This document shows, one piece after another, positions 1 to 53,102 of a DNA stretch of 64,000 nucleotides. The notes below the pieces were generated by a model. That model did not search any database. It was not told the origin of the DNA and saw only the letters and a list, made by a program, of their open reading frames with translations. This stretch comes from an uncultured Lewinella sp. (GTDB lineage: Bacteria > Bacteroidota > Bacteroidia > Chitinophagales > Saprospiraceae): positions 4,904-68,903 of the forward strand of contig CAJXPD010000008.1 of the NCBI GenBank assembly GCA_913057785.1, read 5' to 3'. How positions within the stretch are numbered: position 1 is the stretch's first letter; each line of letters opens with the position of its first letter. The translations under genes were made by a program, and so were the position numbers.

Positions 1-228
1 AAACCAGCTGTTGATAGAATTAGGGCTACAGCAATTAGAAGAAACCACTTTTCTCGATCTCCTTAAGTTACTCATTTAGAAAATGGGCATTTGCCCCGTT
101 TTCCAAGTCTCTGAATTCCAAGAGTTTCACATCGGCCCTTTTTCAAATCAACTTGAGCTTGACCAAGTGTCAAATTCCCAAGTGGGAATGCAATTTATAC
201 AACCTATTCATCTCATACTCCGCAGACT

Positions 229-867
229 ATGAGCGATAAATGGCCGGTCGTGTACGTAATAGTCGTACCACTCTTTCTTCTTTTTCTTCTTGCCGGAGCG
301 AGCGTTTTGGTAGATATCCCGGTGGGGGATTTTACTAGAGATCCAGCCTACCTTGGGGAAATGGCACCCTGGTCGGGATTCCTATCTAATCTGGGCGTGT
401 TATCCTGGTGTGGCGGGGCTATGGTCTGTTTTATGGCATGGGGTGTATTATCTAGGCAGAAGACCCAGCCTAAGCTTGGCCTGTTCTACTTGCTAGCGGG
501 ATTGTATACGAGTCTTTTAATGCTAGATGACCTATTCCTTCTACACGAAGAGATTTTCCCGATCTTCTTACCCTTTGATGAGAAAATTATTTTTGGTGGA
601 TATGGACTGCTATTGATCTCCGGTCTTTACTATTTCAGAGATTTAGTGCTGGAAAGTAAATACCGGTTTCTGATCATAGCCATGGGCTTTTTTGCCATGT
701 CGGTAGGGATCGATTTGATTCAAGATGAAGTCGAGTTATTGCTGGGAGAGTGGAGGATTCTCTTTGAAGACGGATTTAAGTTTCTCGGAATAGTTTGTTG
801 GTTGGCCTACTTCTGGGAAAATACGCAATCAGACCTAAACAAGTTACTCAATAGCGCTGTGGAGTAA
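229..867 (+). CDS. multi-pass integral membrane protein, function unknown (paralog of next gene)
   Basis: 212-aa ATG ORF with several hydrophobic helices. Shares the motifs D-[DE]-x4-H-E (LDDLFLLHEE) and E-[DE]-x2-[KE]-x2-G with the adjacent ORF. Confidence 0.6.
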   Translation: MSDKWPVVYVIVVPLFLLFLLAGASVLVDIPVGDFTRDPAYLGEMAPWSGFLSNLGVLSWCGGAMVCFMAWGVLSRQKTQPKLGLFYLLAGLYTSLLMLDDLFLLHEEIFPIFLPFDEKIIFGGYGLLLISGLYYFRDLVLESKYRFLIIAMGFFAMSVGIDLIQDEVELLLGEWRILFEDGFKFLGIVCWLAYFWENTQSDLNKLLNSAVE

Positions 868-896
868 ACTCCTCCCGGTAATGAAAGAAATTGGTT

Positions 897-1592
897 ATGG
901 AAGTTCAACTTTGCCCTAAAGGGGCCGCAAAAACACTACTTTTTATCCTTGGATTACTACTTTCAGCAAATATCTTGGCAATTAGCTTTAGATATTTTCC
1001 TAGGACCTTATTTACCTCAGCCTTACAATTATTTGACTTCAACACCGAAAATAGTTTTCCTACTTTATACTCCTTCATTATTCTCCTATTATCGGCTGGA
1101 CTTCTAGGTTTGATTGGAATGCTAAGCCGGCAACAAGGTAAGCGGGGCAGAGGATGGTTTATTCTATCCCTAGTGTTCTTGTTCTTGGCGGTCGATGAGA
1201 CTTTGATGATCCACGAAGCTTTAATGATCCCTGTACGTGAGACGCTCAATACTACAGGTTTTTTGTATTACGCCTGGATTATTCCCTATAGCATCTTACT
1301 CGTTCTTTTGTTTTTTATTCTTCTTCCCTTTATCGTCAAACTTCCCAACGATACCCGCAGAAACTTCTTTCTCGCTGGATTTATTTTTGTGGCCGGAGCC
1401 ATTGGGGTTGAGGCGATCACGGGTTGGCACGTGACGGCTTTTGGGGATAAGAATGTAGGATTCGAGATCCTGTACACGATAGAAGAACTGCTAGAGATGG
1501 TAGGTGTAGTCCTGTTCATTTATGCGCTGCTGAATCATATCAGCCGGTATACGCATCTGGCGACCATCATTGTTGGGAAAAAGATTAGTTAA
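897..1592 (+). CDS. multi-pass integral membrane protein, function unknown (paralog of previous gene)
   Basis: The ORF-track start 891 is TTG; the first ATG is at 897. Hydrophobic throughout. Motifs VDETLMIHE and IEELLEMVG align with the upstream paralog. Confidence 0.6.
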   Translation: MEVQLCPKGAAKTLLFILGLLLSANILAISFRYFPRTLFTSALQLFDFNTENSFPTLYSFIILLLSAGLLGLIGMLSRQQGKRGRGWFILSLVFLFLAVDETLMIHEALMIPVRETLNTTGFLYYAWIIPYSILLVLLFFILLPFIVKLPNDTRRNFFLAGFIFVAGAIGVEAITGWHVTAFGDKNVGFEILYTIEELLEMVGVVLFIYALLNHISRYTHLATIIVGKKIS

Positions 1593-2124
1593 GGTCAGAC
1601 TTATTGACATTATACTCTTTTCCCATCCACCTTGCCTTCCATCCTTCTTTTGGGGTGAAAGACCTGGGACGTCCTATGTCTAAGAAATAAGCTAATGGTT
1701 TCTTCTAGCTGACATAAAAAACATGCTGTTTGTGTTCGATGCTATTTTATCTTTTGGAGGCTGGGCAGGTACAGATCAAATCGATCAAGCTGAATCGAAA
1801 GATAATTTGCTTCCTTCCTACTCTTACTGAGGAAGCCTTGAGATGTCTAAAAGGAACTTACTTGACCATTCTTGTTGTCTACTCAAATTAAGTTCTTGGT
1901 CAGAGATAGATTTTTCCTAGCAATTGCAACCTTGCCACCCTTTCCCAAGTAAAAAACTTTAGGCATTTTAGGCGTAAACTGAAGTTTGTCAAGTCAATAA
2001 GCCTTAAGCCTAGATGAACAGAGCATAATGTCCCGCAATATTTAGATGAATTCTTCCAGTAGTTCCTGGTTATTTCTCTAAAGACCTACTTCAAGTAAAA
2101 TCCATTTAAATTCTAACAAATAGT

Positions 2125-5019
2125 ATGAACAGGCACCTGATACTCCGCGATCATGGCCTGGCGGCTACTGTTATAGCAGACACTTCCCTCGAACAGCCCC
2201 AGGTATCAATCATTCACAATGATGATTACACGAAGGCCTTTCCCGTGATTGGAGACATTGCATTCTTTAATGAGTCTGATTTTTATTCTGAAAAGATCCT
2301 GCAGGATAGATGTGAGCAATTGCTAAAAAGCACGGTAGAGACGGTCGATGCCTACGAGCAGTTTGTAAGGCAAAAAGGACGTCGCCCTAATTACGATATA
2401 TATGCTTGTTTCCAACCTTTTAACGAGGCATTCAAAGCACTTTATCCATTTCTTCCGAGCCTAAAGAAACGTCTGAAACCTGGTGATTTACTACTCAATC
2501 TTTGGGATCGAACCGGTTGGAATGCGGCCCTATTGGCCGGTCTTTTCCCCGAGCAAAAAGTGATTTCAATTTGGGAGGGTGATAAAGATGTGCTAGGCTA
2601 TAAGGGGTTTTATTTCTGGTATCAGAATCAGGAAGAAGGGCAAGGCTTTCAAGTTGCCTTTGCTAATTTGGAAAAACCACTTCCCTTTGCGGACAACTCT
2701 GTGGCGCTTGTGGTGGGCTTAGATACCTTCCATCGCTTCGACCAATCCTTGATGTTGAGCGAGATGTTGAGAATAACCACAGATGATGCTGCCATTGTAT
2801 TTCCGCACGTGCACCTTTCCAATAATGAACCCGATCCCTTCTTTGAGCGAGGATGTCGACAATTGCATGGCACGGATTATGACCGCTTCTTTCAGCGAAT
2901 GCTTAGCAAGACCGAAAGGGTGGGAATGGTTTTCCCAGAGCCTGAGATGTTTGCCTTGAATGAGCTATCAGAGAGCGGGCTTGCGCCACTGCAGTCACAA
3001 CCCGATTCTCATCACTATAACTCTTGTATTGCTATTCTGCCAAAGTACTGGGTACAAGAAGAACAGCTGCAAGCCTTCCGTTTTAAAGATCTTGGATCGA
3101 TCGATGATTGTCACATCTTGATTAATCCGCTCCTAGATATCAGCCTACATCAGGCGGTCGTTCGCCTCAATCGTGGCTATCTTTCAGATCGGGTGGGATA
3201 CCTTTTAGATCGCCATCCCATCTACATGGAAAAACTAAGAAAAGCAGCTGATTATAAATTGTCTGAGCTAGAATGCAAATTGTTGTTTTGGGCAGGGCAG
3301 TTGCTTTCGGTAGCTGAAATTGCAGATAAGACGGGTTACGCGGTGGAGGATCTAGCCGCCGCCTTGGAGGAGTTGCAGACTAGAGACATTCTGCAGGTTG
3401 TACCTGTCTCCAAACAGAGTATTCGTCTGCAGGCATTTGTAAGTACCCAGACTTATGTGGTCCCTAAAAATGAGCAGACCATCAATGCGCTTTGGGAGCG
3501 TGCTGTCCGAAATTATTCGGAAGAACTGTTTTTGATTTCTGAAATGGATGAGAGTGAGTTTACTTATGAAGATAGCAATCAATTGATCAAACAAATCCAG
3601 GCGCGCTTGTTGAAGGCAGGACTGCAGAAAGGGGATAAGTTAGCCATTGTAAGCCCTAATCATTTTGAAGGGGTCCTGAGTCTACTGGCAGCTACGCAAT
3701 TGGGTTTGGTAGTGGTACCCATAGAATATGACCTTCCTGAGAGCTCAATACGATATATTTTAGACCAAGTTCAGCCTAAACTAACCTTCCTCAGCCCTAC
3801 CAATTTTGAGCGCTTATCGTCCCTCCTAAGTGCTGAACATACCATTGTATTTGACGAGGAAGAAGAAACAGAAGGCACGCTGTTTTCGGATTGGCTCATG
3901 GATATTGAGGAGGAGGTTGAAGCACCGAGTGCAGCAGTACATGAAAGAGATCTTGCTGTGATCTTGTACACCTCTGGTTCTACAGGCTTGCCGAAAGGGG
4001 TTCAGCTATCCCATGGACATCTGATGCGTAGTGCCAGATTGATTAGCGAGACCTACCAATGGCGCAAGACGGATCGGTTCTTGGCCTTGGGTGAACTAGA
4101 TAGCATGAGTGGTTTGCGAAATTGCTGTTTTGCACCATTGGAAGTAGGTGCCGCAGTAGTTATTCCCGACGCCCGAAATAAAGGCAATCTTTTCGGTATT
4201 TGTGAAGCGATCGGCAACTTTGAAACTACACTTTTGGGCACTACTCCAGCCTTCTTAAATCAAGCTGTCAAATTTGAACGGAGGGTTAAAGCAGATCTAA
4301 GAAGTTTAAGACAAGTAATCTGTACGGGAAGTAATCTGTACCCCGCCTTGCGGAAATCATTCCTCGAAATTTTCAGTATCCCGATCCTTAATTATTACGG
4401 TTTGACCGAAACCACGGGCATTTGCACTGCAGAAACGGAAGAGAATCATCAACTTGATCAACACACTATCGGCATACCTGTGGCTTGCATCGCTCAAATC
4501 CTCACGGACGAAGGTAAATTGGCTAAGCCTGGCGAAAAAGGGGAACTCCGTATTTACAGTGAAAATATAATGATGGGCTATTACGCCAACCCAAAACTTA
4601 CGGCCCAAGTGGTGAGAGATGGCTGGTTCTATACAGGGGACTATGCCAGTTTTACGGAAGAGGGACACATTGAGCTGATGGGGCGTAAACGCGATATCAT
4701 CAAGACCGCCGACGGGAACCTAGTATTCGCTTCAGAAATTGAAGATTGCCTACAAGAGCAAACAGACCTCATCAAAGAAGCGGCTGTCACTGCCATCCAC
4801 GAAGACGGAATGGAAAAGATCATTGCTTTCATCGTGCCTGAATCCACGGAAGCTGATTTGCGGGAGCTGGAAAAGAGCTTGAAAGCACATGTTATCAATC
4901 GACTAGGGAAAAGGAAGGCACCGCTGCGTTTTGTTCCTATTTCCGATATCCCGATTTCTGCGAATGGTAAGGTCCTAAAAGCACAACTTATTGAACAATA
5001 TCTTCAAGAATCCCTATAA
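2125..5019 (+). CDS. fusion protein: N-terminal methyltransferase-like plus winged-helix-like region, C-terminal adenylate-forming (AMP-binding) enzyme
   Basis: 964 aa. The C-terminal half has ANL-superfamily core motifs: YTSGSTGLPKG, YYGLTETTG, WFYTGD..GRKRDIIK, ANGKV. The N-terminal ~480 aa has a Rossmann-like stretch (LLLNLWDRTGW..VISIWEGD) with a degenerate SAM motif. Confidence 0.8.
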   Translation: MNRHLILRDHGLAATVIADTSLEQPQVSIIHNDDYTKAFPVIGDIAFFNESDFYSEKILQDRCEQLLKSTVETVDAYEQFVRQKGRRPNYDIYACFQPFNEAFKALYPFLPSLKKRLKPGDLLLNLWDRTGWNAALLAGLFPEQKVISIWEGDKDVLGYKGFYFWYQNQEEGQGFQVAFANLEKPLPFADNSVALVVGLDTFHRFDQSLMLSEMLRITTDDAAIVFPHVHLSNNEPDPFFERGCRQLHGTDYDRFFQRMLSKTERVGMVFPEPEMFALNELSESGLAPLQSQPDSHHYNSCIAILPKYWVQEEQLQAFRFKDLGSIDDCHILINPLLDISLHQAVVRLNRGYLSDRVGYLLDRHPIYMEKLRKAADYKLSELECKLLFWAGQLLSVAEIADKTGYAVEDLAAALEELQTRDILQVVPVSKQSIRLQAFVSTQTYVVPKNEQTINALWERAVRNYSEELFLISEMDESEFTYEDSNQLIKQIQARLLKAGLQKGDKLAIVSPNHFEGVLSLLAATQLGLVVVPIEYDLPESSIRYILDQVQPKLTFLSPTNFERLSSLLSAEHTIVFDEEEETEGTLFSDWLMDIEEEVEAPSAAVHERDLAVILYTSGSTGLPKGVQLSHGHLMRSARLISETYQWRKTDRFLALGELDSMSGLRNCCFAPLEVGAAVVIPDARNKGNLFGICEAIGNFETTLLGTTPAFLNQAVKFERRVKADLRSLRQVICTGSNLYPALRKSFLEIFSIPILNYYGLTETTGICTAETEENHQLDQHTIGIPVACIAQILTDEGKLAKPGEKGELRIYSENIMMGYYANPKLTAQVVRDGWFYTGDYASFTEEGHIELMGRKRDIIKTADGNLVFASEIEDCLQEQTDLIKEAAVTAIHEDGMEKIIAFIVPESTEADLRELEKSLKAHVINRLGKRKAPLRFVPISDIPISANGKVLKAQLIEQYLQESL

Positions 5020-5031
5020 GCTAGACGCAAA

Positions 5032-6864
5032 ATGACAGACACCGTTGCAATTTTCAAAAGACTAGAAGACAAAAAAATACAATCGAAGCTATTCGCCCAG
5101 CTCGATAAGAAATATACTTATGCTGATCTCCACACCGGATTAGCTAAAATGACGACCTACTTCCAACAAAAAGGCCTAAGCCAGGGAGATCGTTTAATCA
5201 TTTCCTCTAGAGATAATTATGCCGTTAGCATCCTTTTTCTTTCTTGTTTGAAAAATGGCATCACCGCGATGATGTTGGACCCCGATATGGGGACGATCCG
5301 AGCGAACGAATTGATCAAGCTAACAGAGCCTAAGGGCTTGTTGGTAGATCATGAGCTTACTGCAGCCTGGTCTCTTGCAGATAAGACTGAGTTTATCTTG
5401 CCGATCAAGAAGGAAAAACAAAAGAAAGGATTGCTGTTCAAGAAGATGCTTAAGAGCAAGAGCAATGGAGCGCAAAAGGCGACGACCTTTCCGGCTATTC
5501 TCAATCAACTAGAGGAAGGAGATGGACCGAGTCAGATAGATCCAGAGAGCACTGCTTACATCCTGTTTACCTCTGGCTCTACCTCCACACCCAAGGCTGT
5601 GCAGATCAGTCATCGGGCTTTGTGGGCCAATTTGAATACGATAGTGAAAGTGTATAATATCGAGGAAGGGGATAGAGTATTCAATATCCTAACAGCCTAT
5701 CATACAGATGGTATTATTCAAGGCCCTGTGCTGGCTGTCCTAAACACACATAGCTGGTATCATCCTTTTGAATTTGCGATCGACAAGATCGAAGCGATTT
5801 TCGACAGCATCTATAAATATCGGATTACCCATTTCATTACTGTTCCAACCATGCTGGCTTTCCTCAATAAATTCTCGGATGGATTTGAGGATACCTTTGA
5901 CAATGCCGATTTTAAGAGCATAATCACCTCCGCCTCTCCCTTGGAAGTTGAATTATGGAAGACCTTTGAACAGAAGTTCAATACCCGGATCGTCAATAAC
6001 TACGGCTTGACGGAAACAGTGGTAGGGGCCAGTTATTGCGGACCAAGCCCGTCCACACATCGCATCGGATCAGTGGGCGTGCCAGTGGATTGTGAATTCA
6101 AAATCATCAACGAGACGGGAGAGACCTTAGGAGATAATGAACAAGGTGAATTACTCATTAAAGGAGATAACTTGCTGACGAATTACCTGAATAATGAAGA
6201 AGCGACAGCGGCCGCCATACAAGATGGTTGGTTTCATACAGGTGATTTTGCCAAACGTGATGAGGATGGCTTCTACTACATCGTCGGACGCAAGAAAAAC
6301 CTGATCATTTCGGGAGGAATCAATATACAACCGGAAGAAGTAACCGCGGTATTAAATAGCCACCCAGCGGTACTAGAATCAGCATCCTTAGGTTTACCAG
6401 ATGATATTTTTGGGGAGAAACTAGTAGCAGCTGTTGTACTCAATACAGGTACTTCGGTCGATGAATTGGCCTTGGTTGAGCACTGCCGAACAGAGTTAGA
6501 GGAGGCTAAGGTGCCAAAGAAGATTCATTTTGTGAGTGCTATACCCAAGACAGGCTCTGGAAAGATCAAATATCAGGAGGTGACGGAACTGCTGAAGGCC
6601 GATAAAGAACTGGTACTAAGCAATGGTGATCACGGTTATACCGAGGGCATCCTCGCCGCTGCGGCAGATGCGTTCAAAATAGATGCTTCTAAATTAGATA
6701 TGAAGGGGGATTCCTTGAGTATCGATGGCTGGGATTCCATGGCCCATTTGGTCTTTATTACGAATCTAGAAGATCAATTTAAAGTGCGCTTTAATTCCAA
6801 GGAGATCATGGTGATGAATACCTTGGCAGAGGCTGAGCAGATTCTCGCTGCAAAACTGAACTAG
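5032..6864 (+). CDS. adenylating enzyme fused to a C-terminal acyl/peptidyl carrier domain (A-T didomain, DltA+DltC-like)
   Basis: 610 aa. Motifs FTSGSTSTPKA, NNYGLTETV, WFHTGD..GRKKNLIISGG, GSGKI. The C-terminal ~80 aa has a carrier-protein signature, IDGWDSMAHL (Ser569, codon 6736-6738). Confidence 0.85.
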   Translation: MTDTVAIFKRLEDKKIQSKLFAQLDKKYTYADLHTGLAKMTTYFQQKGLSQGDRLIISSRDNYAVSILFLSCLKNGITAMMLDPDMGTIRANELIKLTEPKGLLVDHELTAAWSLADKTEFILPIKKEKQKKGLLFKKMLKSKSNGAQKATTFPAILNQLEEGDGPSQIDPESTAYILFTSGSTSTPKAVQISHRALWANLNTIVKVYNIEEGDRVFNILTAYHTDGIIQGPVLAVLNTHSWYHPFEFAIDKIEAIFDSIYKYRITHFITVPTMLAFLNKFSDGFEDTFDNADFKSIITSASPLEVELWKTFEQKFNTRIVNNYGLTETVVGASYCGPSPSTHRIGSVGVPVDCEFKIINETGETLGDNEQGELLIKGDNLLTNYLNNEEATAAAIQDGWFHTGDFAKRDEDGFYYIVGRKKNLIISGGINIQPEEVTAVLNSHPAVLESASLGLPDDIFGEKLVAAVVLNTGTSVDELALVEHCRTELEEAKVPKKIHFVSAIPKTGSGKIKYQEVTELLKADKELVLSNGDHGYTEGILAAAADAFKIDASKLDMKGDSLSIDGWDSMAHLVFITNLEDQFKVRFNSKEIMVMNTLAEAEQILAAKLN

Positions 6865-6866
6865 GA

Positions 6867-7745
6867 ATGAAGCACAGATTTCCTCCTTTGTGGGTGTGGG
6901 CTTGTACCATGGGCTTTGTGATGCTAACAGTCTTTGTCATAGGTAGTTCTGGAATCATTGATATACGCCATGGCTTTGGAACCAATTATGGGAGCTTCAG
7001 AAGCCGTCTAGCGCATTTGAAATCCACTGCCGAAATCAACGAAGGCGATAAGGTGGTTGTGGTGATTGGTTCTTCTTTCACGGCCATGGCTGTGGATCAT
7101 CGGCCTTTCTTCTATGATAAGTACCAACAGAGTCATGGGGGTAACCTACATGTGTTCAAGCTATACATGTATGGTTGCAATGCTGAAGTTTTCCAGAGAC
7201 TTCCGGAATTCTTCGAAATGGCTGCATCCTTGCAGCCGGACATCGTCTGTGTGGAGGAACACCTATTGGCCATTAATGAAAATCCAGATACAGATGGCAT
7301 GAGCATACCGAGCTGGATAAGTGACTTCAATTTAGGCGTAAACGCCATAAGAAGTTACTTTCTTCCAGAGTCGGATAGTACAGAATGGCATGATGTACCC
7401 ACCTTTGAGTTCTTCTGGAAATACCATGATACTACTTATCACGCGGATTCGTTGGAGGTCGGTCAAAAACCGAATTACCAGGTAAGAAACTATGCCAGCA
7501 ATCGCCGATTAAATAAGTGGCTCAAGACATATGTGCCTGACAACACACATATAGTATGCATCAGTATACCCAGAGCTCCACATGCCGAAGAAAAGTTGGC
7601 CAAACTTAGAGGTCAGGAAGACTACTTGAGCTTGAGGGATAAATACGAGGAACAACATGAGGTAGACTTTTGGATATTCCCAGATACCCTGCCCTATATC
7701 ATGTATTCGGGAGATGATCATTTGAATATGACGGGGATGCGTTGA
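6867..7745 (+). CDS. membrane-anchored SGNH-like acyltransferase/esterase (DltD/AlgJ-like)
   Basis: 292 aa with an N-terminal TM anchor. VVVIGSSFT (candidate nucleophile Ser block) and GDDHLNMTG near the C-terminus (a DxxH-type block as in DltD/AlgJ/AlgX). Starts 2 nt after the carrier gene. Confidence 0.55.
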   Translation: MKHRFPPLWVWACTMGFVMLTVFVIGSSGIIDIRHGFGTNYGSFRSRLAHLKSTAEINEGDKVVVVIGSSFTAMAVDHRPFFYDKYQQSHGGNLHVFKLYMYGCNAEVFQRLPEFFEMAASLQPDIVCVEEHLLAINENPDTDGMSIPSWISDFNLGVNAIRSYFLPESDSTEWHDVPTFEFFWKYHDTTYHADSLEVGQKPNYQVRNYASNRRLNKWLKTYVPDNTHIVCISIPRAPHAEEKLAKLRGQEDYLSLRDKYEEQHEVDFWIFPDTLPYIMYSGDDHLNMTGMR

Positions 7746-7792
7746 TACTCAAATTGGTTGAGCGAGCAAATTGAAAAGCAACTTCACCCCTG

Positions 7793-8923
7793 ATGGATAT
7801 TCTAAACCTCATATTGGCATTCTTGGCTGTTCTGGTACCGATTTGCTGGTTGGTGCCCAGCAAATGGCAGGTCTGGGCTATTGTCGTAGGGACTTTGGCG
7901 TTTCTGTTGTGGCAGTCTCCGATTTCCGTTGCCATTCTTGCATTTACCACCGTAAGTAGTTATGGAATTTTCCAATCGGGTCTGAATAGGGCGTGGGCCA
8001 CGATAATGATTCTGTTGCAATCCATAGGACTATTTGTTCTGTACAAAGCAAACTGGGCTCCCGATGTATTGCAAGATGGTAATCGATTGATACCCTTAGG
8101 CTTATCGTACTATTCCTTTCGACAGATTCACTATGCTATCGAGCAATACAAGGAGAAAGTTCCAATACATAGTTTTGGGGAGTACGTGTGCTATATGTTC
8201 TTTTTACCGACCATCTTAGTGGGGCCTATCAATCGTTTTCCCACCTTCATGCGCCATCTGCGACGGCGACGGTGGGATGAACAGATGTTTGCGGATGGCT
8301 TAGAACGGATATTATATGGCTATGCGAAGATTGTGATCTTGGGTAATTTTTTGGTGTCACGGATCATAGCAGAGGCGATTGAAGACATTGATCATCAGTA
8401 TATCTGGCTGAAGACCTATTTGGAGTCCATCAATTTCTTGCTTAATACCTACTTCCAGTTCGCTGGCTTTTCCGATGTAGCTATTGGTCTAGCACTCCTC
8501 TGTGGCTTTAGAGTGATGGAAAATTTCAACTACCCACTCAGCGCACCGAATATCAATGAATTCTGGAATCGCTGGCATATTTCGCTATCGTCTTGGTGCA
8601 AAGACTACGTCTACATACCCGTTGCCAGCATCACTCGGCAGCCCATTTGGGGGATCATTTTTACGATGTTGGTTATCGGACTCTGGCATGAATTGTCCAT
8701 GAAATATATTATCTGGGGATTGTTTCATGGCATAGGTATTGCCATTTGGCATCTCTATAAGAATAGTGGAATAGCAAATCGCCTGACGAAAAATTTGCCT
8801 TATTACGAATTCTGGGCAAAAGTGCTGACTTTCCACTTTGTGGTTTTGAGTTTCGTTATCGTAATGGAACCTGATTGGATTTCTGTTTGGGAGCGATATA
8901 AGATTTTACTGTTTTTTAACTAG
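7793..8923 (+). CDS. membrane-bound O-acyltransferase (MBOAT), DltB/AlgI-like
   Basis: 376 aa, polytopic. Signature FWNRWHISLSSWCKDYVYIP with the conserved MBOAT histidine (H262, codon 8576-8578). Confidence 0.85.
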   Translation: MDILNLILAFLAVLVPICWLVPSKWQVWAIVVGTLAFLLWQSPISVAILAFTTVSSYGIFQSGLNRAWATIMILLQSIGLFVLYKANWAPDVLQDGNRLIPLGLSYYSFRQIHYAIEQYKEKVPIHSFGEYVCYMFFLPTILVGPINRFPTFMRHLRRRRWDEQMFADGLERILYGYAKIVILGNFLVSRIIAEAIEDIDHQYIWLKTYLESINFLLNTYFQFAGFSDVAIGLALLCGFRVMENFNYPLSAPNINEFWNRWHISLSSWCKDYVYIPVASITRQPIWGIIFTMLVIGLWHELSMKYIIWGLFHGIGIAIWHLYKNSGIANRLTKNLPYYEFWAKVLTFHFVVLSFVIVMEPDWISVWERYKILLFFN

Positions 8924-8928
8924 AAAGT

Positions 8929-9066
8929 ATGTACGAATTTCTGCTCAAATATCTATCGGTTCGCTGGGCCAATGTGGGAATTATACTTTGGTATACTTTT
9001 TTAGTGCTATTGATCCTGTATATGATGCAGGTGGAAGAGGCCAATTTTCGATATATCGATTACTAG
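8929..9066 (+). CDS. 45-aa single-pass micro-protein, DltX-like candidate
   Basis: Not in the ORF track (<60 aa). ATG 8929, TAG 9064-9066, 5 nt after the MBOAT stop. My translation is MYEFLLKYLSVRWANVGIILWYTFLVLLILYMMQVEEANFRYIDY: one TM helix, then the C-terminal motif F-R-Y-I-D-Y. Confidence 0.4.
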   Translation: MYEFLLKYLSVRWANVGIILWYTFLVLLILYMMQVEEANFRYIDY

Positions 9067-9075
9067 TTCAGCGCT

Positions 9076-9834
9076 CTATTCCCAAATGGTACTCAAGTAG
9101 GCCAATTCTTTCCCATCTTCTTCCTTGACCAGCCTATGCTGAAAGTGTCCAGCTTCCTTTTCAAAGCATTGAGAAACGACCCGATCTTCCAGTAAAGCTT
9201 CAGCTTGGTATTGCACTTGCATATCCACCAATTGTTTATGCTCTAGCACGCGCTGGGGTAGACTTTCGAGCATCCATTGGATGTAATAGGTATTGTTTAG
9301 ATGTCTGTTAAAATCCAGGTCATGCCAATTTACACGGAAAGATTTTTCCCAATGAACCTCGTCCATTTCCTTGTCCATTTTGGTATTGACTCTCGGCAAG
9401 TAAGTTTCGGGAGCAGGTAGGCGCTCTTCCAATTTCAGTATAAAGGCGGGAATTCGGGTTAAGCGTCGCGTTTTCGTATTCATCAATAGCCAGGCGGTAC
9501 TCGAAGAAGCAATTTGCTCACCAGATTCATCGAAAATGCGGAAGTCTCGGTAGGTGTATACGCGTTCAAAACCAGAGGGGTGAGTTCTCACTCGAATCTT
9601 TTCTCCCAATCTAGGCAATCGTACGACCTCCATATGATTCCGCATCAATATCCAGGAGATATCATGTGGCTCCAAATCCCAGACCGAAATGCCCAACTTG
9701 ATGACTTGTTCCATTGCTGCCTCCTGCATCAGGCGGACTAGGGCTGGAAGTGTAGCCACCTTTCGACTATCGATATCATAGGTGCGGATCTGAAATTCGG
9801 CCTCGTGTACAATGGGTTTCAGTGGGCTGGTCAT
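9076..9834 (-). CDS. acyl-ACP thioesterase
   Basis: Double hot-dog FatA/FatB-like sequence (IRTYDID.., WHDLDFNRHLNNTYYIQW). The track start 9903 is GTG; I trimmed to ATG at 9834 (MTSPLKPIVHEAEF). Confidence 0.8.
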   Translation of the reverse strand: MTSPLKPIVHEAEFQIRTYDIDSRKVATLPALVRLMQEAAMEQVIKLGISVWDLEPHDISWILMRNHMEVVRLPRLGEKIRVRTHPSGFERVYTYRDFRIFDESGEQIASSSTAWLLMNTKTRRLTRIPAFILKLEERLPAPETYLPRVNTKMDKEMDEVHWEKSFRVNWHDLDFNRHLNNTYYIQWMLESLPQRVLEHKQLVDMQVQYQAEALLEDRVVSQCFEKEAGHFQHRLVKEEDGKELAYLSTIWE

Positions 9835-10189
9835 AATGCAGTGATTCTTTGGCCCAAAAGAAACTAATTTTAAGGGGATAAGCAAATTCACCTTGCTCGC
9901 CACATAGGTTCCGAGTTAGGAAAGGAAGTATATCTGGCAGAAGTGGCCTTCTAAGCCCATCCTTAGGACGATACACCGCTTGAGGCAGAAAGCAGCGATA
10001 AGCCTTCATCTTGACTTAGCTGCCCCTGTTTCCTTATATACTTTGGCGATAAACTTAAGCACAACTGATCAAATTGGTGATTTTGCTGCTGATCCATATA
10101 AAATTCTATTGCCTAAGCGGGGGTAAGGACGCCAACAAAATCATTGAAAAGCGAGTAGCCGTTTATCCACCAATAATTTTAATTCTGGC

Positions 10190-10220
10190 TTTGGTAATTC
10201 AAGGGAAAACCTTACCTTTG
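10190..10220 (+). promoter_or_regulatory. candidate Bacteroidota sigma-A promoter for the ribosomal superoperon
   Basis: TTTG (10190-10193), then 19 nt, then TACCTTTG (10213-10220). This matches the -33 TTTG / -7 TAnnTTTG consensus, ~95 nt upstream of the rpsL ATG. Confidence 0.4.
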
Positions 10221-10314
10221 CAATCGCTTTTGACAGAGGGGTGCCCTCCGTCCATCTTGAAAGAGGTGTTAAGCGAGCGTTAATTAATTGAATTTTAATC
10301 GTAAATGCGAACGT

Positions 10315-10686
10315 ATGCCAACCATTAATCAGCTCGTACGCAAAGGCAGAACACAGGTTATCACAAAAAGCAAGTCTAGAGCTTTGGACGCATGTCCACA
10401 GAAGCGTGGGGTTTGCACGAGAGTATATACTACTACTCCGAAGAAACCTAACTCTGCGTTGCGTAAGGTAGCGAAGGTTCGTCTAACAAATGGCATTGAG
10501 GTGATCGCTTATATCCCAGGAGAGGGGCACAACTTGCAAGAGCACTCTATCGTACTGATTCGCGGTGGTAGGGTAAAAGACTTGCCAGGGGTGCGCTACA
10601 CGATTGTTCGTGGTGCTTTGGATACTGCAGGGGTGAGTGATCGTAAGCAGAGCCGTTCGAAGTACGGAGCTAAGAGACCTAAGTAG
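10315..10686 (+). CDS. rpsL: 30S ribosomal protein S12
   Basis: [22 protein letters not shown]. The track ORF (10288) was trimmed to ATG 10315. Confidence 0.97.
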
Positions 10687-10740
10687 TAATTATGTTTCAA
10701 TCATTGTAGGTATTCCTACGGAAACCTCTAATTAAGAGAA

Positions 10741-11208
10741 ATGAGAAAAAGAAAACCAAAATTAAGAATTCCTCAGCCGGATCCACGATACGGTGACCCT
10801 TTAGTAACCCAGTTCGTCAACAACATGATGTGGCAGGGTAAAAAGACTACTGCTTTCCGCATTTTTTATGATGCAATGGACATCATCAAAGATCGCACTA
10901 AGCAGGAAGAGCACGCTATCTGGAAGAAGGCTCTCAATAACGCTATGCCTCAAGTAGAGGTTCGTAGCCGCCGAATTGGTGGTGCTACGTTTCAGATTCC
11001 AACTGAGATTCGCCCTAAGCGTAAAATCTCTATTGGTATGAAATGGCTTATCAAATTTGCCCGTACACGCAGTGGAAAGGGTATGGCTGAAAAATTAGCT
11101 GCAGAGCTAATTGCCGCTAGCAAGGGAGAAGGTGCAGCTGTGAAGCGTAAAGAAGATACGCACAAAATGGCTGAATCTAACCGAGCTTTCGCTCACTTCC
11201 GTGTTTAA
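10741..11208 (+). CDS. rpsG: 30S ribosomal protein S7
   Basis: 155 aa, ..[24 protein letters not shown].., position after rpsL. Confidence 0.97.
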
Positions 11209-11250: not shown

Positions 11251-13386
11251 ATGGCAAAAGATCTCAAATACACGAGAAACATTGGGATTGCTGCTCACAT
11301 TGATGCGGGTAAGACTACGACTACTGAGCGTATTCTATACTACACCGGTATAAGCCATAAGATCGGTGAGGTGCACGATGGTGCTGCTACCATGGACTGG
11401 ATGGAGCAGGAGCAGGAAAGAGGAATTACTATTACTTCGGCTGCCACCAAGACTTCTTGGAAGTGGAAAGACGAAGAATATACGGTTAACATCATTGATA
11501 CTCCAGGTCACGTTGACTTTACTGTTGAAGTAGAGCGCTCACTACGTGTATTGGATGGGGTGGTTGCCCTTTTCTGTGCAGTATCTGGTGTTGAGCCACA
11601 ATCTGAAACTGTTTGGCGTCAAGCTGATCGTTATAAAGTACCAAGAATCGGTTTCGTTAATAAAATGGACCGCTCTGGTGCAGACTTCTTTAATGTAGTG
11701 AATGATGTAAAGGAAAAACTAGGTGCAAACCCAGTGCCTTTGCAAGTGCCAATCGGAGCTGAAGAGCGCTTTAAAGGAGTTGTTGACCTGATTACCAATC
11801 AAGCGATTGTTTGGAATGAGGAAGACAGAGGAATGACTTACGAAGTAATTGACATTCCTGAAGACTTGAAAGATACCGTTGAAGAGTACAGAGAAAAGTT
11901 GTTGGAAGCGGTAGCAGAATATGACGAGTCTTTGATGGAGAAATACTTCGAAGATCCAGATTCAATTTCTGCAGATGAGATTCGTGCGGCTATCCGTGCG
12001 GCAGTGATCGACATGAGCATCATCCCAATGATGTGTGGATCTGCTTTTAAGAATAAAGGAGTTCAAGCTGCTCTTGATGCAGTATGTTCTTTCTTACCTT
12101 CTCCTGTAGATGTTGATGCGATCGAAGGTACTGATCCTCGTACAGATGAGCCTGTTACTAGAAAGCCTAGCAATGATGAGCCTTTCGCAGCATTGGCCTT
12201 CAAAATTGCTACCGACCCTTACGTTGGTCGTTTGGCCTTCTTCCGTGTGTACTCTGGTACATTAGATGCTGGTTCATATGTCATGAATACACGTTCTGGT
12301 AAGAAAGAGAGAATCTCTCGTTTGTACCAGATGCACTCCAACAAGCAAAATGCAGTACCCGGCGTTCAAGCTGGAGACATCGCAGCAGCTGTTGGTTTCA
12401 AAGACTTGAGAACAGGGGATACGATTTGTGCAGTTGATAAGCCAATCGTACTGGAGAGCATGACTTTCCCAGAGCCTGTGATCGGGGTGGCTGTAGAGCC
12501 AAAATCTCAGAAAGACTTGGACAAGTTGGGTATGGCTTTGGCCAAATTGGCTGAAGAGGATCCTACTTTCCGCGTACGATACGACGAAGACACTAACCAA
12601 ACCGTAATCAGCGGTATGGGTGAGCTTCACTTGGAAATCATTGTTGACCGTTTGAGAAGAGAGTTTAAAGTAGAGTGTAACCAAGGTCAACCTCAGGTAA
12701 ATTACAAAGAAGCACTTACCAAAACTGTTGAACACCGTGAGCGCTTGAAAAAGCAAACGGGTGGTTCTGGTTTGTTCGCCGATATGGAATTCGAATTAGG
12801 CCCAGCCGATGAAGAATTCTTGGAAAGCGAAGACTTCAAGAATGGTAAGACTAAGTTGCAGTTCGAGTGGGGTATCGTTGGTGGTGCTATCGACAAGAAC
12901 TACGTCAAGCCAATTAGGGACGGATTCACTGCGATGATGGACAATGGTATCCTTGCTGGCTACAGCATCGATAGCATGAAAGTTAGAGTATTTGATGGAT
13001 CTATGCACGCGGTTGACTCGAAACCTATTGCCTTCGAACTTTGTGCGAAGGAAGGATTCAAAGCAGCAGCAGGTAGAGCAAAATCTGTACTTCTTGAGCC
13101 AATCATGAAGCTCGAGGTTGTAACTCCTGAAGAATACGTTGGACCTGTAATCGGTGACTTGAACCGTCGTCGTGGTCTTCCTAAGAATCAGGAAGCTCGT
13201 ATGGGGGGAGCAGTAGCCATCCAGGCTGATGTACCTCTATCAGAAATGTTCGGTTATGTAACTTCACTTCGTACGATTACTTCTGGTCGTGCAAGTTCTA
13301 CGATGGAATTCTCTCACTATGCGGAGGCTCCTCAAGGGATTGCTAAAGAAGTAATTGAAAAAGCAAGAGGAGAAGTTAAAGTATAA
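11251..13386 (+). CDS. fusA: elongation factor G
   Basis: 711 aa. G-domain motifs [21 protein letters not shown]. Confidence 0.98.
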
Positions 13387-13393
13387 GAATAGC

Positions 13394-13432
13394 ATGTGGT
13401 TATTGGCTGGCGAAAGCTGCCAGTAACCACAT
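13394..13432 (+). other. strong stem-loop after the fusA stop
   Basis: ATGTGGTTA...TAACCACAT outer 9-bp stem with an inner CTGGC/GCCAG stem. No downstream T-tract, so not a canonical terminator. Confidence 0.5.
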
Positions 13433-13518
13433 CTTGATAATAAGATACACGTACAGACTACTACGTTACTTTTAGTATAGCAGAAAGACGTTTTTATCAA
13501 AAACATTTTAATTCAGGC

Positions 13519-13827
13519 ATGAATCAGAAAATCAGAATCAAACTCCGTTCTTACGACCATAATTTAGTAGACAAGTCTACTGAAAAGATCGTTAAAACAG
13601 TTCGGAATAGTGGTGCTGTCGTTACTGGTCCGATTCCGCTGCCCACCGAGAAGAAAATCTTTACCGTGCTCCGTTCACCGCACGTCAATAAGAAATCTCG
13701 CGAGCAGTTCCAGTTGCGTACACACAAACGCCTCATTGAAATCTATACTCCTACACAGAAAACAGTGGACGCTCTGTCCAAATTGGAATTGCCAAGCGGG
13801 GTAGATATTCAAGTGAAATTGACGTGA
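13519..13827 (+). CDS. rpsJ: 30S ribosomal protein S10
   Basis: 102 aa, [24 protein letters not shown]. Confidence 0.97.
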
Positions 13828-14189
13828 TAATAAACGACGGAGCTTTACAGGAAAGGTTTTCCTTACCAATCTTGTAATCCTGTCCATTTTTTGTAAAGTC
13901 TGAAGATGCTAGATGTTAGATATTAGGCGCTTGTCCTAATAGATTCGAAGTGAGCTGGATTTTGCGCTTTCCGCCATCATTCCTCGCCATTTTGGATCAA
14001 GACAGAGGTAGAAACTAGATGTCCACGAGCTGATCGTTATAGTGAGTTTTCGTATATGGCATCCAAGTCTGTTATCTAATATCTGCTGGTTGATAACCCT
14101 GCTAAAGCTAGGTCTATCAACGGCGATCTAGAGTCTGTCATCTTTGAGTTCCTCAGCCTCCATACTGAGGTCCATAAAAAGAAAAACTG

Positions 14190-14810
14190 ATGAACGGATT
14201 AATCGGAAAAAAGATCGGAATGACCAGCGTTTATAATGACGCGGGTCGTAATGTGCCATGCACGGTAATCGAGGTGGGCCCCTGTGTTGTGACCCAGGTT
14301 AAGACAGCTGAATCCGATGGCTACAGCGCTATCCAAGTCGGTTTTAGCGAAGCTAAAGCTAAAAATACTTCCAAAGCCCTTCAAGGACATTTTGACAACG
14401 CCAAAACTACTCCAAAACGTAAAGTGGCTGAGTTTCGCGATTTCGAAACGGAAAAAACCTTAGGTGAGACGATCACTGTTGACGAGGTTTTTGAAGAAGG
14501 AGATTTCGTAAACGCAATTGGTACTTCCAAGGGTAAAGGTTTCCAGGGGGTTGTTAAAAGACACGGCTTTGCGGGTGTAAATGACGCCACGCACGGTCAG
14601 CACAACCGTCAACGTGCCCCAGGTTCTATTGGTGCGGCTTCTTATCCAGCCAAAGTTTTCAAAGGTATGCGTATGGCAGGTCGCGATGGTGGCCGTCAAG
14701 TGAAGATTCAAAACCTTGAGGTAGTGAAGATCTTCCCAGAGCGTAACCTGATTTTGGTGAAGGGAGCAGTCCCAGGCCATAAAGGAGCCTACGTTATTCT
14801 TGAAAAGTAA
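14190..14810 (+). CDS. rplC: 50S ribosomal protein L3
   Basis: 206 aa, [20 protein letters not shown]. Confidence 0.97.
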
Positions 14811-14864
14811 TTATTAATGGTGTCTCGCGAATTTCGATTGGCGAACGCATTAACGCGATAAAAA

Positions 14865-15497
14865 ATGAAGCTCGAGGTTTTAAATATTCAAGGCGAGAAA
14901 ACAGGGAGATCCGTGGATCTACCAGAAGATATTTTTGGTATCGAACCCAATGAGCACGCGGTGTACTTGGCTGTAAAGCAATTCTTGGCTAACCAAAGAC
15001 AAGGAACGCACAAAGCCAAAGAACGTGGCGAGGTCGCTGGTTCTACCCGCAAACTTAAGCGCCAAAAGGGAACGGGTACAGCTCGTGCTGGTGATATCAA
15101 AAATCCCGTCTTCAGAGGAGGTGGACGTATTTTCGGTCCAAGACCGCGAAAATATACCGTTCGCTTGAACAAGAAGGTGAAGAGATTGGCTAGAAAATCT
15201 GCTTTGTCTGATAAGGCAGCAGCTGGTAATATCTTGATCGTAGAGGACTTCTCCTTTGAAGCGCCAAAAACAAAAGAGTTTATCAATATTCTTCAGCAGC
15301 TTGATGTGAACGGTCAGAAAACGATCCTAGTCACTTCGGATTTCGAAAAAGAGGTCTACCTATCTAGCCGCAACGTGCCTAAAACGGAGACAGTGCGTGC
15401 TACGGACCTTAATACTTACGAGATCATGAACGCGGGTAAGTTGATCCTTTCCGAAGGAGCCGTGGAGAAGATTAAAGAAACCTTTGCAAACGCATAA
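14865..15497 (+). CDS. rplD: 50S ribosomal protein L4
   Basis: 210 aa, ..RQGTHKAKERGEVAGSTRKLKRQKGTGTAR.. Confidence 0.97.
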   Translation: MKLEVLNIQGEKTGRSVDLPEDIFGIEPNEHAVYLAVKQFLANQRQGTHKAKERGEVAGSTRKLKRQKGTGTARAGDIKNPVFRGGGRIFGPRPRKYTVRLNKKVKRLARKSALSDKAAAGNILIVEDFSFEAPKTKEFINILQQLDVNGQKTILVTSDFEKEVYLSSRNVPKTETVRATDLNTYEIMNAGKLILSEGAVEKIKETFANA

Positions 15498-15499
15498 TC

Positions 15500-15796
15500 A
15501 TGGCTAAGACAGTATTAGTAAAACCGATCATTACGGAAAAGGCGGAAGGCTTGTCTGACAGCTTGAATCAATATTCTTTCGTTGTCGATCGCAAAGCCAA
15601 TAAGATCGAAATCCGTAAGGCGGTAGAAGAAATGTATGGCGTGACGGTTGACTCCGTTAACACAATGATCATGCCTGCTAAGACTAAAAATCGTACTACT
15701 CGATCTGGATATGTACGCGGACGGGTTTCTTCTTACAAGAAAGCCATCATTACATTGACAGAAGGAGAAGAGATAGATTTCTTTGGTGACATTTAA
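15500..15796 (+). CDS. rplW: 50S ribosomal protein L23
   Basis: 98 aa, conserved order L4-L23-L2. Confidence 0.95.
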   Translation: MAKTVLVKPIITEKAEGLSDSLNQYSFVVDRKANKIEIRKAVEEMYGVTVDSVNTMIMPAKTKNRTTRSGYVRGRVSSYKKAIITLTEGEEIDFFGDI

Positions 15797-15961
15797 GTTC
15801 ATTCATTGAGTGTGGAACTAGTTCCTTAAGTCACCAAGGGGAATGTATAATTGAGAGTGTATAATGAATAGATTTCCATCCTTCATTTTTCATTCATAAT
15901 TTTTCATTCTTCATTACAAGGGCTAGGCTCCGAAATTCAATGTCTAATAAATTTTTAAGTA

Positions 15962-16798
15962 ATGCCAGTTAAAAAGTATAATCCGATTACGCCGGGTACT
16001 CGAACGAGAGTAGGGAATGCTTATACGGAGATTACGACGAATAAGCCGGAAAAGACCCTATTGGCACCTTTACACAAGTCGGGTGGACGTAACCACGACG
16101 GTAAAATGACGGTACGCCAAAGAGGTGGTGGACACAAGCGTCGTTACCGTGTGATTGACTTCAAGAGAGATAAGGATGGAGTAGTAGGAACAGTGAAGTC
16201 AATTGAGTATGATCCAAACCGTACGGCTTTTATCGCTTTGATCGAGTATACGGATGGTGAGAAGAGATACATCGTTGCTCCTAATGGCTTGAAGGTAGGT
16301 GCGGAGATTGTATCTGGAGCAGGAGCGGCACCAACTGTTGGTAATGCCCTTTATTTGAAAGATATTCCTTTCGGTGTAGTTATTCACGCGATTGAGATGC
16401 AGCCTGGAAGAGGAGCTGCTTTGGCTAGAAGTGCAGGTACAAAAGGTACCTTGAAAGGTAGAGAAGGAAAATATGCCATTATTGAGTTGCCATCAGGTGA
16501 GGTGCGCAGAATTCTACAAACTTGTAAAGCGACTATCGGTTCTACCTCTAACCCAGACCACGGTCTACAGGTACTAGGTAAAGCAGGTCGTAAGCGTTGG
16601 TTAGGAAGAAGACCTCGAGTAAGAGGTGTAGCCATGAACCCAGTAGATCACCCAATGGGTGGTGGTGAAGGCCGTGCTTCTGGAGGACACCCACGTTCTA
16701 GAACAGGTATCATGGCCAAAGGTCAGAAAACCCGTAACAACAAGAAGTACTCTACGAGCCTGATCATTTCTAAGCGTAAATCGAAATCAAGAAAATAA
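15962..16798 (+). CDS. rplB: 50S ribosomal protein L2
   Basis: 278 aa, ..[22 protein letters not shown].. Confidence 0.98.
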
Positions 16799-16808
16799 TA
16801 GCTAGATA

Positions 16809-17078
16809 ATGGCAAGATCAATAAAAAAAGGCCCCTACGTCTTTCACAAGTTGTTGGATAAAGTGGCTAAAGCTAAGGAATCAAAGAAGAAGATGGTGAT
16901 CAAAACTTGGTCTCGTTCTTCAATGATCATTCCTGATATGGTTGGTGAGACTATTGCCGTTCACAATGGCAAAACTTTCATCCCCGTATTTGTAACGGAA
17001 AACATGGTGGGACACAAATTGGGTGAATTTTCTCCAACCCGCAACTTTAGAGGTCACTCCGGTAACCGTAAGAAATAA
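16809..17078 (+). CDS. rpsS: 30S ribosomal protein S19
   Basis: 89 aa, [19 protein letters not shown]. Confidence 0.97.
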
Positions 17079-17125
17079 TTGTTAAGTCGATTGGAGCAAT
17101 CCAATTCATCATAATTAATCAAATT

Positions 17126-17554: not shown

Positions 17555-17586
17555 GCTATTTAAAAAAACATTTATACACCATAGAT

Positions 17587-18357: not shown

Positions 18358-18377
18358 AATAATTAACAAAAATGCCT

Positions 18378-18385
18378 TACCTTTG
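18378..18385 (+). promoter_or_regulatory. candidate internal -7 promoter box (TACCTTTG) upstream of rplP
   Basis: The 13-mer CCTTACCTTTGCA (18375-18387) is identical to the one upstream of rpsL (10210-10222). It lies in the 94-nt rpsC-rplP spacer. The -33 element is weak (TTAG). Confidence 0.3.
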
Positions 18386-53084: not shown

Positions 53085-53102
53085 TCTTTCAAAAAACAAA
53101 CC

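Follow-up and report, generated by a model that had tools for sequence, protein, structure and literature searches.

A Dlt-like gene cassette of Saprospiraceae and other diderm bacteria that probably encodes a trans-membrane acyl relay

Results

A five-gene operon in an uncultured Lewinella genome

We analyzed a 64,000-nt stretch of DNA (here called the window) from an uncultured Lewinella sp. (GenBank assembly GCA_913057785.1, contig CAJXPD010000008.1, positions 4,904 to 68,903), in which an operon of five open reading frames (ORFs) on the forward strand probably codes for an acyl relay across the membrane on the plan of the Dlt machinery. ORF1 (2125-5019, 964 aa) codes for an adenylating enzyme with a methyltransferase-fold-like N-terminal domain, ORF2 (5032-6864, 610 aa) for an adenylating domain fused to a carrier domain, ORF3 (6867-7745, 292 aa in its present form) for an N-terminal membrane anchor followed by a predicted periplasmic SGNH-fold domain, ORF4 (7793-8923, 376 aa) for a DltB-type MBOAT, and ORF5 (8929-9066, 45 aa) for a single-pass microprotein ending in FRYIDY. 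A preliminary description, made from the sequence alone, had listed five co-directional genes separated by 12, 2, 47, and 5 nt, and their coordinates, strand, and all four intervals were recovered here, as were the motifs it had read: GWDSM with Ser569 in ORF2, G68-S69-S70 and D283-D284-H285 in ORF3, and WHISLSSW with His262 in ORF4. The diderm surroundings that it had claimed fit the remainder of the window, which is diderm and Bacteroidota-like, with a str/S10 ribosomal operon and outer membrane beta-barrel proteins carrying CarboxypepD_reg domains. The genomes closest to the window are Saprospiraceae bins.

A DltB-type MBOAT followed by a microprotein with an invariant tyrosine

ORF4 matched the Pfam MBOAT profile (PF03062) with an E value of 1.7e-22 (80.6 bits versus a cutoff of 27), which assigns it to the superfamily, and its sole NCBIfam match was LTA_dltB (TIGR04091) at 175.4 bits. 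DltB was likewise the only NCBIfam match of the orthologues from Shewanella, Caulobacter, and Sulfitobacter, with scores of 121 to 156 bits. The best matches among solved structures were DltB 6bug (8e-28) and 8jem; the alignment with DltB paired query residues 53 to 357 with chain residues 77 to 403 and aligned the block EFWNRWH(I/M)SLS(S/F)W, and the predicted catalytic His262 (nt 8576-8578), located in WHISLSSW, fell on the catalytic His of DltB in RWHMSLSFW. In MBOAT/SGNH pathways other than Dlt there is neither a carrier nor a microprotein, and the tyrosine motif is carried by two additional C-terminal helices of longer, acetyl-CoA-dependent MBOATs such as PatA, AlgI, and WssH (PMC12148441; for WssH also PMC8892547). 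We took these extra helices and the fused FxYxxF motif as the feature that separates AlgI/PatA-type from DltB-type MBOATs (PMC12148441, PMC8892547). Inspection of the C termini revealed that ORF4 is a short form that ends in ...YKILLFFN and has no fused FxYxxF motif. Thus, the histidine motif that had been read as shared by DltB and AlgI is borne out by the profile match and the aligned His, and the architecture is that of DltB without the AlgI-type shuttle tail. Judged by its short length and by the location of the motif on a separate microprotein, ORF4 is assigned to the DltB type and not to the AlgI/PatA type.

In Dlt, DltX ends in an FxYxxF motif with an invariant Tyr (PMC12148441). As a criterion for a shuttle microprotein of this kind we used a length of about 45 to 50 aa, a single membrane pass, and a C-terminal hexapeptide of the form aromatic/hydrophobic-x-Tyr-x-x-aromatic/hydrophobic. 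An ORF of 45 to 48 aa directly followed the MBOAT gene in all 11 cassettes in which this was recorded (from Bacteroidota, Shewanella, and Caulobacter), with Tyr at position -4 from the C terminus in 11 of 11. The endings seen were FRYIDY, FRYVDY, FRYANW, FKYLQW, LRYLNY, FRYGNI, FRYAVW, IGYINI, and FSYMKL. In ORF5 the putative acyl-shuttle residue is Tyr42, encoded at nt 9052-9054 within FRYIDY, and a search of ORF5 against NCBIfam gave no meaningful match. By its length, single pass, hexapeptide, and invariant Tyr, ORF5 thus classifies as a putative acyl-shuttle microprotein of the DltX-like kind, in agreement with the earlier proposal that this 45-aa single-pass peptide is the counterpart of DltX.

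Two adenylating enzymes resembling acyl-CoA synthetases, one of them fused to a carrier

The adenylating domain of ORF2 (aa 24 to 511) matched the Pfam profiles AMP-binding (PF00501; 2e-59, 202 bits) and AMP-binding_C (PF13193; 2.3e-18), and it is followed by a putative carrier domain at aa 540 to 601 (nt 6649-6834), in which Ser569 (nt 6736-6738) is the predicted site of phosphopantetheine attachment. The segment around this Ser, GWDS[ML][AG]HL, was invariant across phyla in 10 cassettes; in the further cassettes in which the 3' end of ORF2 was read, the carrier domain accompanied the MBOAT each time (10 of 10); and the Shewanella orthologue scored 23.7 bits with PP-binding, over the Pfam threshold. 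The C-terminal 85 residues of ORF2 also align around the attachment Ser with what we take to be the sequence of DltC. The fusion of an adenylating enzyme to a carrier with Ser569 in GWDSM, as first described, is consistent with these Pfam assignments and with the invariance of GWDS across the cassettes.

ORF1 matched AMP-binding (1.8e-71, 241 bits) and AMP-binding_C (1.5e-08) as well, with an ANL domain at aa 458 to 949 (nt 3496-4971) that ends on the A10 lysine, Lys949. The core motifs A3, A5, A7, and A8 and the A10 Lys are present in ORF1 and ORF2 and are kept across phyla, which assigns both to the ANL enzymes. The best solved relatives of ORF2 were oxalyl-CoA synthetase (1.3e-56), then FadD13 and malonyl-CoA synthetase, and ORF2 carries a synthetase-type (Y/S)H(T/A)DG motif at the place where DltA and nonribosomal peptide synthetase (NRPS) enzymes have FD. 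For ORF1 the best single-domain match was an acyl/feruloyl-CoA synthetase at 143 bits, compared with 96.5 bits for DltA and about 95 bits per domain for NRPS enzymes. A special likeness of ORF1 to the glycine module of LgrA (E value 1.5e-56) was rejected, as this value adds up two ordinary matches, each of about 95 bits, one to each of the two LgrA modules. Scored against TIGR01733, the profile used for amino acid adenylation of the DltA/NRPS kind, ORF1 reached 180.7 bits and remained under the cutoff of 317.

We also searched both adenylating domains for the aspartate that binds the alpha-amino group (Asp235 in GrsA, numbering verified against 1AMU), and a clear Asp was found in neither. In ORF1 the conserved segment M(S/T)GLR is present, and the position of Asp235 is occupied by Ser or by Met according to the alignment used. 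Stachelhaus codes derived by MAFFT (SGNGITYICK for ORF1 and DGQIISNGAK for ORF2) were not used for substrate prediction, as the A4 region aligns ambiguously. These data indicated that both enzymes are acyl-CoA-synthetase-like by sequence and not DltA. Given domains of this type, both without a clear Asp for the alpha-amino group, an alpha-amino acid is an improbable cargo, and the aminoacylation considered in the preliminary description is disfavored.

The N-terminal part of ORF1, up to residue 440, is strongly conserved in Bacteroidota. It consists of a methyltransferase-fold-like domain of about aa 1 to 375 and a winged-helix-like segment of about aa 375 to 430 (nt 3247-3414). Methyltransf_11 matched ORF1 at an E value of 0.022 and 15.8 to 17.5 bits, below the cutoff of 21.2, and weak Methyltransf_11 matches followed by weak winged-helix matches recurred in seven of seven ORF1 homologues. 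For a class I S-adenosylmethionine (SAM)-dependent methyltransferase we looked for an above-threshold profile match together with a motif I of the form D/E-x-G-x-G-x-G. Motif I of ORF1 reads LNLWDRTGW (ILDVWGRTGW in Caulobacter), in which two glycines of the SAM motif are replaced by Trp and Arg, so that by score and by motif ORF1 falls outside this class. The methyltransferase-like character that had been noted for this domain therefore stands at the level of the fold, while its SAM motif deviates and its profile score is sub-threshold. Homologues of the module occur in Proteobacteria and Myxococcota, and those examined carry an N-terminal zinc ribbon of the Trm112/RlmA type.

An anchored SGNH protein of its own family

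ORF3 matched nothing in Pfam or NCBIfam, including DltD (PF04914) and ALGX (PF16822). Against the sequences of the PDB, collinear matches of block I and block V to a GDSL esterase were seen at a nonsignificant E value of 0.19. A word-indexed search found just 10 clusters of relatives, while an exhaustive HMMER search found 181 representatives of 280 to 340 aa. In an alignment of 115 sequences, the sole invariant column was Ser70, the putative nucleophile (nt 7074-7076), and G68, an Asp, H285, N287, and G290 were conserved in at least 90% of the homologues. The Asp/His block of ORF3 is D283-x-H285 (nt 7713-7721), and the pattern of the family is D-x-x-H-(L/M)-N. For the oxyanion hole, neither the position of the block II Gly nor that of the block III Asn was at least 90% Gly or Asn in this alignment.

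The AlphaFold2 model built on the 115-sequence alignment had a pLDDT of 92.4 and a pTM of 0.90, and nearly all of its top 50 Foldseek matches in the PDB were SGNH/GDSL enzymes. The top three, each with a probability of 1.00, were the Bacteroides acylhydrolase 4ppy (4.5e-4), PatB 7tjb (6.9e-4), and a CE2 esterase. An earlier model from 10 close homologues (pLDDT 55, nonsignificant Foldseek matches) was dropped in favor of this one. According to the model, ORF3 has the SGNH fold and an N-terminal anchor; it constitutes a family of its own, and by analogy it would be a functional counterpart of DltD and PatB while lying outside the DltD family. Of the earlier reading of ORF3 as an anchored SGNH protein with GSS and DDH blocks like those of DltD/AlgJ, the fold, the Ser, and the Asp/His pair hold, and membership in the DltD or ALGX family does not.

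The cassette recurs in several phyla as a six-module unit

The whole locus is syntenic within Saprospiraceae, including an acyl-ACP thioesterase gene and the str operon. Elsewhere in Bacteroidota, the same cassette was found with unrelated flanks in Spirosoma, Tenacibaculum xiamenense, Flavilitoribacter nigricans (with the SGNH gene moved behind the microprotein gene), Pedobacter changchengzhani, and one Planctomycetes-labelled bin, and overall it is present in four Bacteroidota classes, in Shewanella, and in Caulobacter. It is thus not specific to Bacteroidota, the setting in which it had first been placed, and it probably also occurs in Myxococcota and Betaproteobacteria. The co-occurrence of the five-gene set far exceeds chance; the same genes recur together beside unrelated flanks in all these taxa. 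The cassette often lies amid housekeeping genes, as by the str operon in the window and between tsf and pyrH in Tenacibaculum.

In Shewanella sp. Scap07 and Caulobacter ginsengisoli there are six genes, which encode an adenylating enzyme, an adenylating enzyme with carrier, an SGNH-like protein, an MBOAT, a microprotein, and a separate methyltransferase-like protein. Since the methyltransferase-like module is a gene of its own in these two, the unit is best described, on its gene content, as a six-module system in which two modules are fused in Bacteroidota. The stand-alone first adenylating enzyme of Shewanella sp. Scap07 (415 aa, 3896-5143 of its locus) matches AMP-binding profile positions 112 to 384 and lacks the N-terminal part. 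The methyltransferase-like protein of C. ginsengisoli (9001-11016 of its locus) has a C-terminal extension that weakly matches the first 60 AMP-binding positions, and this extension may be a relic of the Bacteroidota-type fusion; the next gene (11389-18732 of that locus) encodes a 2447-aa protein without a Pfam domain.

A Sulfitobacter plasmid carries a reduced, four-gene form, consisting of an adenylating enzyme with carrier (PGWDS), a distant SGNH-like protein, an MBOAT, and a microprotein ending in IIYIDL, and it adjoins glycosyltransferase genes. As this form has the adenylating enzyme-carrier fusion and no ORF1, it points to ORF2 as the carrier-loading enzyme, and its position beside glycosyltransferase genes suggests a glycan acceptor, at least in this relative.

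ORF3 is shortened and diverges rapidly

ORF3 of the window ends at an in-frame TGA (7743-7745), where the closest relative has AGA. Comparison with homologues delimited a feature at 7743-7793 on the forward strand, made up of this TGA and a 15-codon remnant of the ancestral ORF3 C terminus: the old frame runs on for 15 codons (YSNWLSEQIEKQLHP) to a TGA at 7791-7793 that overlaps the ATG of the MBOAT gene, and in every homologue the SGNH stop codon overlaps the MBOAT start codon. Homologous proteins have 307 to 309 aa and end in RRYSxWLxxQIxKQFHP. The 47-nt interval between ORF3 and ORF4, which had been given at the right length, is therefore not truly intergenic, because it results from the shortening of ORF3 by the TGA and the remnant frame reads through it. 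The sole other contig with the TGA is the same scaffold (an ENA metagenome, identical to the window) and is not an independent confirmation; as a single metagenome scaffold supports it, the stop codon could stem from misassembly or from a minority variant.

When the window was compared with a contig of GCA_010672835.1, identity was 68% for ORF3 (at 801-1724 in the relative), 95.5% for the MBOAT, 92.5% for the ORF2 C terminus, 93% for the microprotein, and 99% for EF-G. In all lineages the SGNH protein diverges much faster than the MBOAT (for example, 50% versus 84%), which suggests diversifying selection or allele exchange acting on the enzyme that would face the acceptor. The GCA_010672835.1 contig, which is labelled Cyanothece sp. 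SIO1E1, is 10 kb long, shares 91.5% DNA identity and the Saprospiraceae-type synteny with the window, and has an unannotated microprotein gene; it was probably mis-binned into a cyanobacterial genome.

Neighboring genes

An Rfam search of positions 1-10300 found no riboswitch or other family, and scans for promoters and terminators gave nothing beyond chance level. The acyl-ACP thioesterase gene (9076-9903, reverse strand) converges on the operon, with the two stop codons 9 nt apart; it was rejected as a component, being syntenic in all Saprospiraceae loci and not beside the cassette elsewhere. Upstream lie two co-directional ORFs (229-867 and 891-1592; 212 and 233 aa) without a Pfam match, separated from ORF1 by a 533-nt interval without an Rfam match. 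Counterparts of 253 and 229 aa stand at the same place in the related loci L001 and L002 and are missing in L004, and these genes were likewise rejected as parts of the cassette, lying outside the conserved set. Farther downstream, 48915-62791 encodes a 1389-aa fn3-rich protein followed by three large ORFs (1120, 1100, and 733 aa), for which no Pfam match was found at an E value of 1e-5 or lower.

Discussion

We propose, with a probability of about 0.7, that the operon encodes a Dlt-built trans-membrane acyl relay, an uncharacterized relative of Dlt that would move an acyl group across the inner membrane to an envelope component. From the domain identities, the fold, the conserved catalytic residues, and the co-occurrence of the genes across phyla, we infer the whole chemistry, together with the topology, the cargo, and the acceptor, as follows. 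The adenylating domain of ORF2 would use ATP to activate a carboxylic acid, probably not an alpha-amino acid, which would then be loaded as a thioester onto the phosphopantetheine of its own carrier at Ser569. The carrier would dock at the cytoplasmic face of the DltB-type MBOAT, ORF4, whose His262 would catalyze movement of the acyl group onto Tyr42 in the FRYIDY ending of ORF5, on the periplasmic side. Ser70 of the membrane-anchored ORF3 would accept the acyl group from there and pass it to a hydroxyl or amine of the envelope acceptor, most likely lipopolysaccharide (LPS) or another glycan, with peptidoglycan or a lipid as further possibilities. ORF1 would be an accessory enzyme that supplies or tailors the acyl donor, the four-gene variant presumably working without it. 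The Dlt-like, carrier-dependent pathway of the preliminary description thus gains support from homology, a structure model, and comparative genomics. The profile searches, pocket residues, and distribution survey that it had listed as checks all favor such a pathway, and the opposite was seen of the carrier independence that it had named as contrary evidence, the MBOAT being nearest to DltB and the carrier being present in 10 of 10 further cassettes.

Several results weigh against this proposal. The MBOAT, at 175.4 bits, does not reach the DltB equivalog cutoff of 375 bits, and the PP-binding match (PF00550) of the ORF2 carrier (E value 0.017, 15.8 bits) is below its cutoff of 20.8. ORF5 matched nothing in Pfam at an E value of 0.1 or lower, DltX (DUF3687) included, apart from a spurious match to PDR_CDR. 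Profile searches with ORF3 against the PDB sequences returned nothing significant and no DltD, and DltD was not within the top 50 Foldseek matches of the ORF3 model. The Asp of ORF3 stands at His-2 in the Saprospiraceae clade of the family, the usual place being His-3, and the in-frame TGA costs ORF3 its last 16 residues, including a Trp kept in at least 90% of the 115 homologues. The proposal does not account for the presence of two adenylating enzymes. The six-gene cassettes were never beside polysaccharide or LPS genes in the loci examined, so that the acceptor named above is only a guess.

A true dlt operon that attaches D-alanine or another amino acid to LPS or another polymer would account for the matching parts list and for DltB as the closest relative of the MBOAT, and dlt operons of Gram-negative bacteria do exist (PMC5541007), such a function having been proposed for the dltXABCD genes of Dickeya and Pectobacterium. 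We consider it very unlikely, given that both adenylating domains are nearest to acyl-CoA synthetases, that ORF2 has the synthetase-type motif instead of FD and ORF1 no cleanly aligned Asp235, that the MBOAT scores under the DltB equivalog cutoff, and that neither DltD nor DltX gave a family match. Still less probable is a carrier-independent acetyl- or acyltransferase pair of the PatA/PatB, AlgI/AlgJ, or WssH/WssI kind, which would draw on acyl-CoA, with the adenylating genes either merely making the CoA ester or being unrelated. PatB is indeed the second-best structural match of ORF3 and the adenylating domains resemble CoA ligases, but the MBOAT lacks the two extra helices with the fused FxYxxF, the motif being borne by a separate microprotein, and all cassettes examined, from whichever phylum, have a carrier with an invariant Ser joined to the adenylating enzyme.

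Two further alternatives leave the relay in place and concern its target or its present state. Delivery to something other than a glycopolymer, such as a lipid head group, a lipoprotein or surface protein, or water (which would amount to export of a small acid by group translocation), would fit the position of the six-gene cassettes, often amid housekeeping genes and never beside polysaccharide or LPS genes, as well as the frequent hydrolase activity of SGNH enzymes, TesA and esterases being among the top structural matches. All characterized bacterial MBOAT-SGNH pairs acylate envelope polymers (PMC12148441), and the reduced Sulfitobacter variant lies within a glycosyltransferase cluster, which makes such a target unlikely. 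As for the state of the pathway, the nonsense codon removes the C-terminal 16 residues of ORF3, so the relay may be impaired in the window genome. Whether the codon marks a recent inactivation, leaving the operon a decaying remnant, is somewhat doubtful to us. The loss of a widely conserved Trp, and the mere 68% identity of ORF3 to a counterpart whose neighbor genes are 92 to 99% identical, are what decay would produce; yet the remaining genes, four in all, are intact and strongly conserved, the TGA lies downstream of the catalytic Ser, Asp, and His, and the stop codon comes from a single scaffold. Moreover, ORF3 evolves fast in all lineages, the window copy being no farther from outgroups than its sister copy.

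The proposed relay can be set against known envelope acylation systems. PatA/PatB carry out O-acetylation of peptidoglycan, and AlgI/AlgJ/AlgX and WssH/WssI that of alginate and cellulose, respectively. In Vibrio cholerae, AlmEFG transfers glycine onto lipid A; an adenylating enzyme and a carrier feed envelope acylation there, as in the cassette. AlmG belongs to the lipid A secondary-acyltransferase family and not to the MBOATs, is not known to have an SGNH partner or a microprotein, and works by cytoplasmic-side chemistry, whereas the cassette uses an MBOAT/SGNH pair. The pairs PatA/PatB, AlgI/AlgJ/AlgX, and WssH/WssI have in common with the cassette a Gram-negative host, an MBOAT with a periplasmic SGNH or SGNH-like partner, and the tyrosine shuttle motif, and they differ from it in the MBOAT and carrier features given above. 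The dltXABCD genes of Dickeya and Pectobacterium are also a Dlt-type system of diderms with LPS as the presumed target (PMC5541007), and compared with them the cassette appears as a distinct, more divergent lineage with extra modules.

In the Dlt system, DltB moves D-Ala from DltC to the Tyr of DltX, DltX passes it to the Ser of DltD, and DltD to lipoteichoic acid (PMC12148441). With the Dlt pathway by which Firmicutes D-alanylate teichoic acids, the cassette shares an ATP-dependent adenylating enzyme, a phosphopantetheinyl carrier, and a short DltB-type MBOAT, all in one operon, together with a separate microprotein of about 45 aa that ends in aromatic-x-Tyr-x-x-aromatic and an N-terminally anchored SGNH-fold protein. 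In contrast to Dlt of Firmicutes, the cassette has its carrier fused to an adenylating enzyme, and it encodes a second adenylating enzyme, to which methyltransferase-like and winged-helix modules belong. Its adenylating domains are of the acyl-CoA synthetase type and show no clear Asp for binding an amino group. By sequence, the SGNH protein does not match DltD nor the microprotein DltX, and the MBOAT stays below the DltB equivalog cutoff. The microprotein gene follows the MBOAT gene instead of standing first in the operon, and the hosts are diderms without teichoic acids. By these comparisons the cassette would work like Dlt, and yet its proteins fall outside DltA, the DltB equivalog, DltD, and DltX. 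Thus, we classify it, on the basis of sequence, as an analogue or variant of Dlt and not as an orthologue of dltXABCD.

Literature searches aimed at the cassette found no description of it. Its design principle is already known, and what is new is the breadth, the extra modules, and the presumed chemistry in diderms. It is an even call, in our judgment, whether this is the first recognized member of a second widespread class of DltX-type acyl shuttle in diderms of several phyla, one that attaches an acyl group other than an amino acid to a core component of the envelope, perhaps after tailoring by the conserved second adenylating enzyme together with the methyltransferase-fold module. Three parts of the cassette are without a Pfam or NCBIfam model, namely the SGNH partner, the microprotein, and the module of methyltransferase fold and winged helix, and the cassette thereby defines three protein families. 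It is also compact and has cultivable hosts among Pedobacter, Spirosoma, Tenacibaculum, Flavilitoribacter, Shewanella, and Caulobacter species, and the mass of its carrier domain in the loaded state should reveal the acyl group directly. If the proposal is true, many environmental Gram-negative bacteria would have an envelope modification that chemical analysis has not yet seen. Such a modification could alter surface charge, hydrophobicity, recognition by phages or predators, and resistance to antimicrobial peptides, the envelope acceptor and the link to cationic-peptide resistance being speculation. The occurrence of a cassette with both carrier and microprotein in Bacteroidota, Alphaproteobacteria, and Gammaproteobacteria would mean that the carrier-and-microprotein design is not a peculiarity of Firmicutes.

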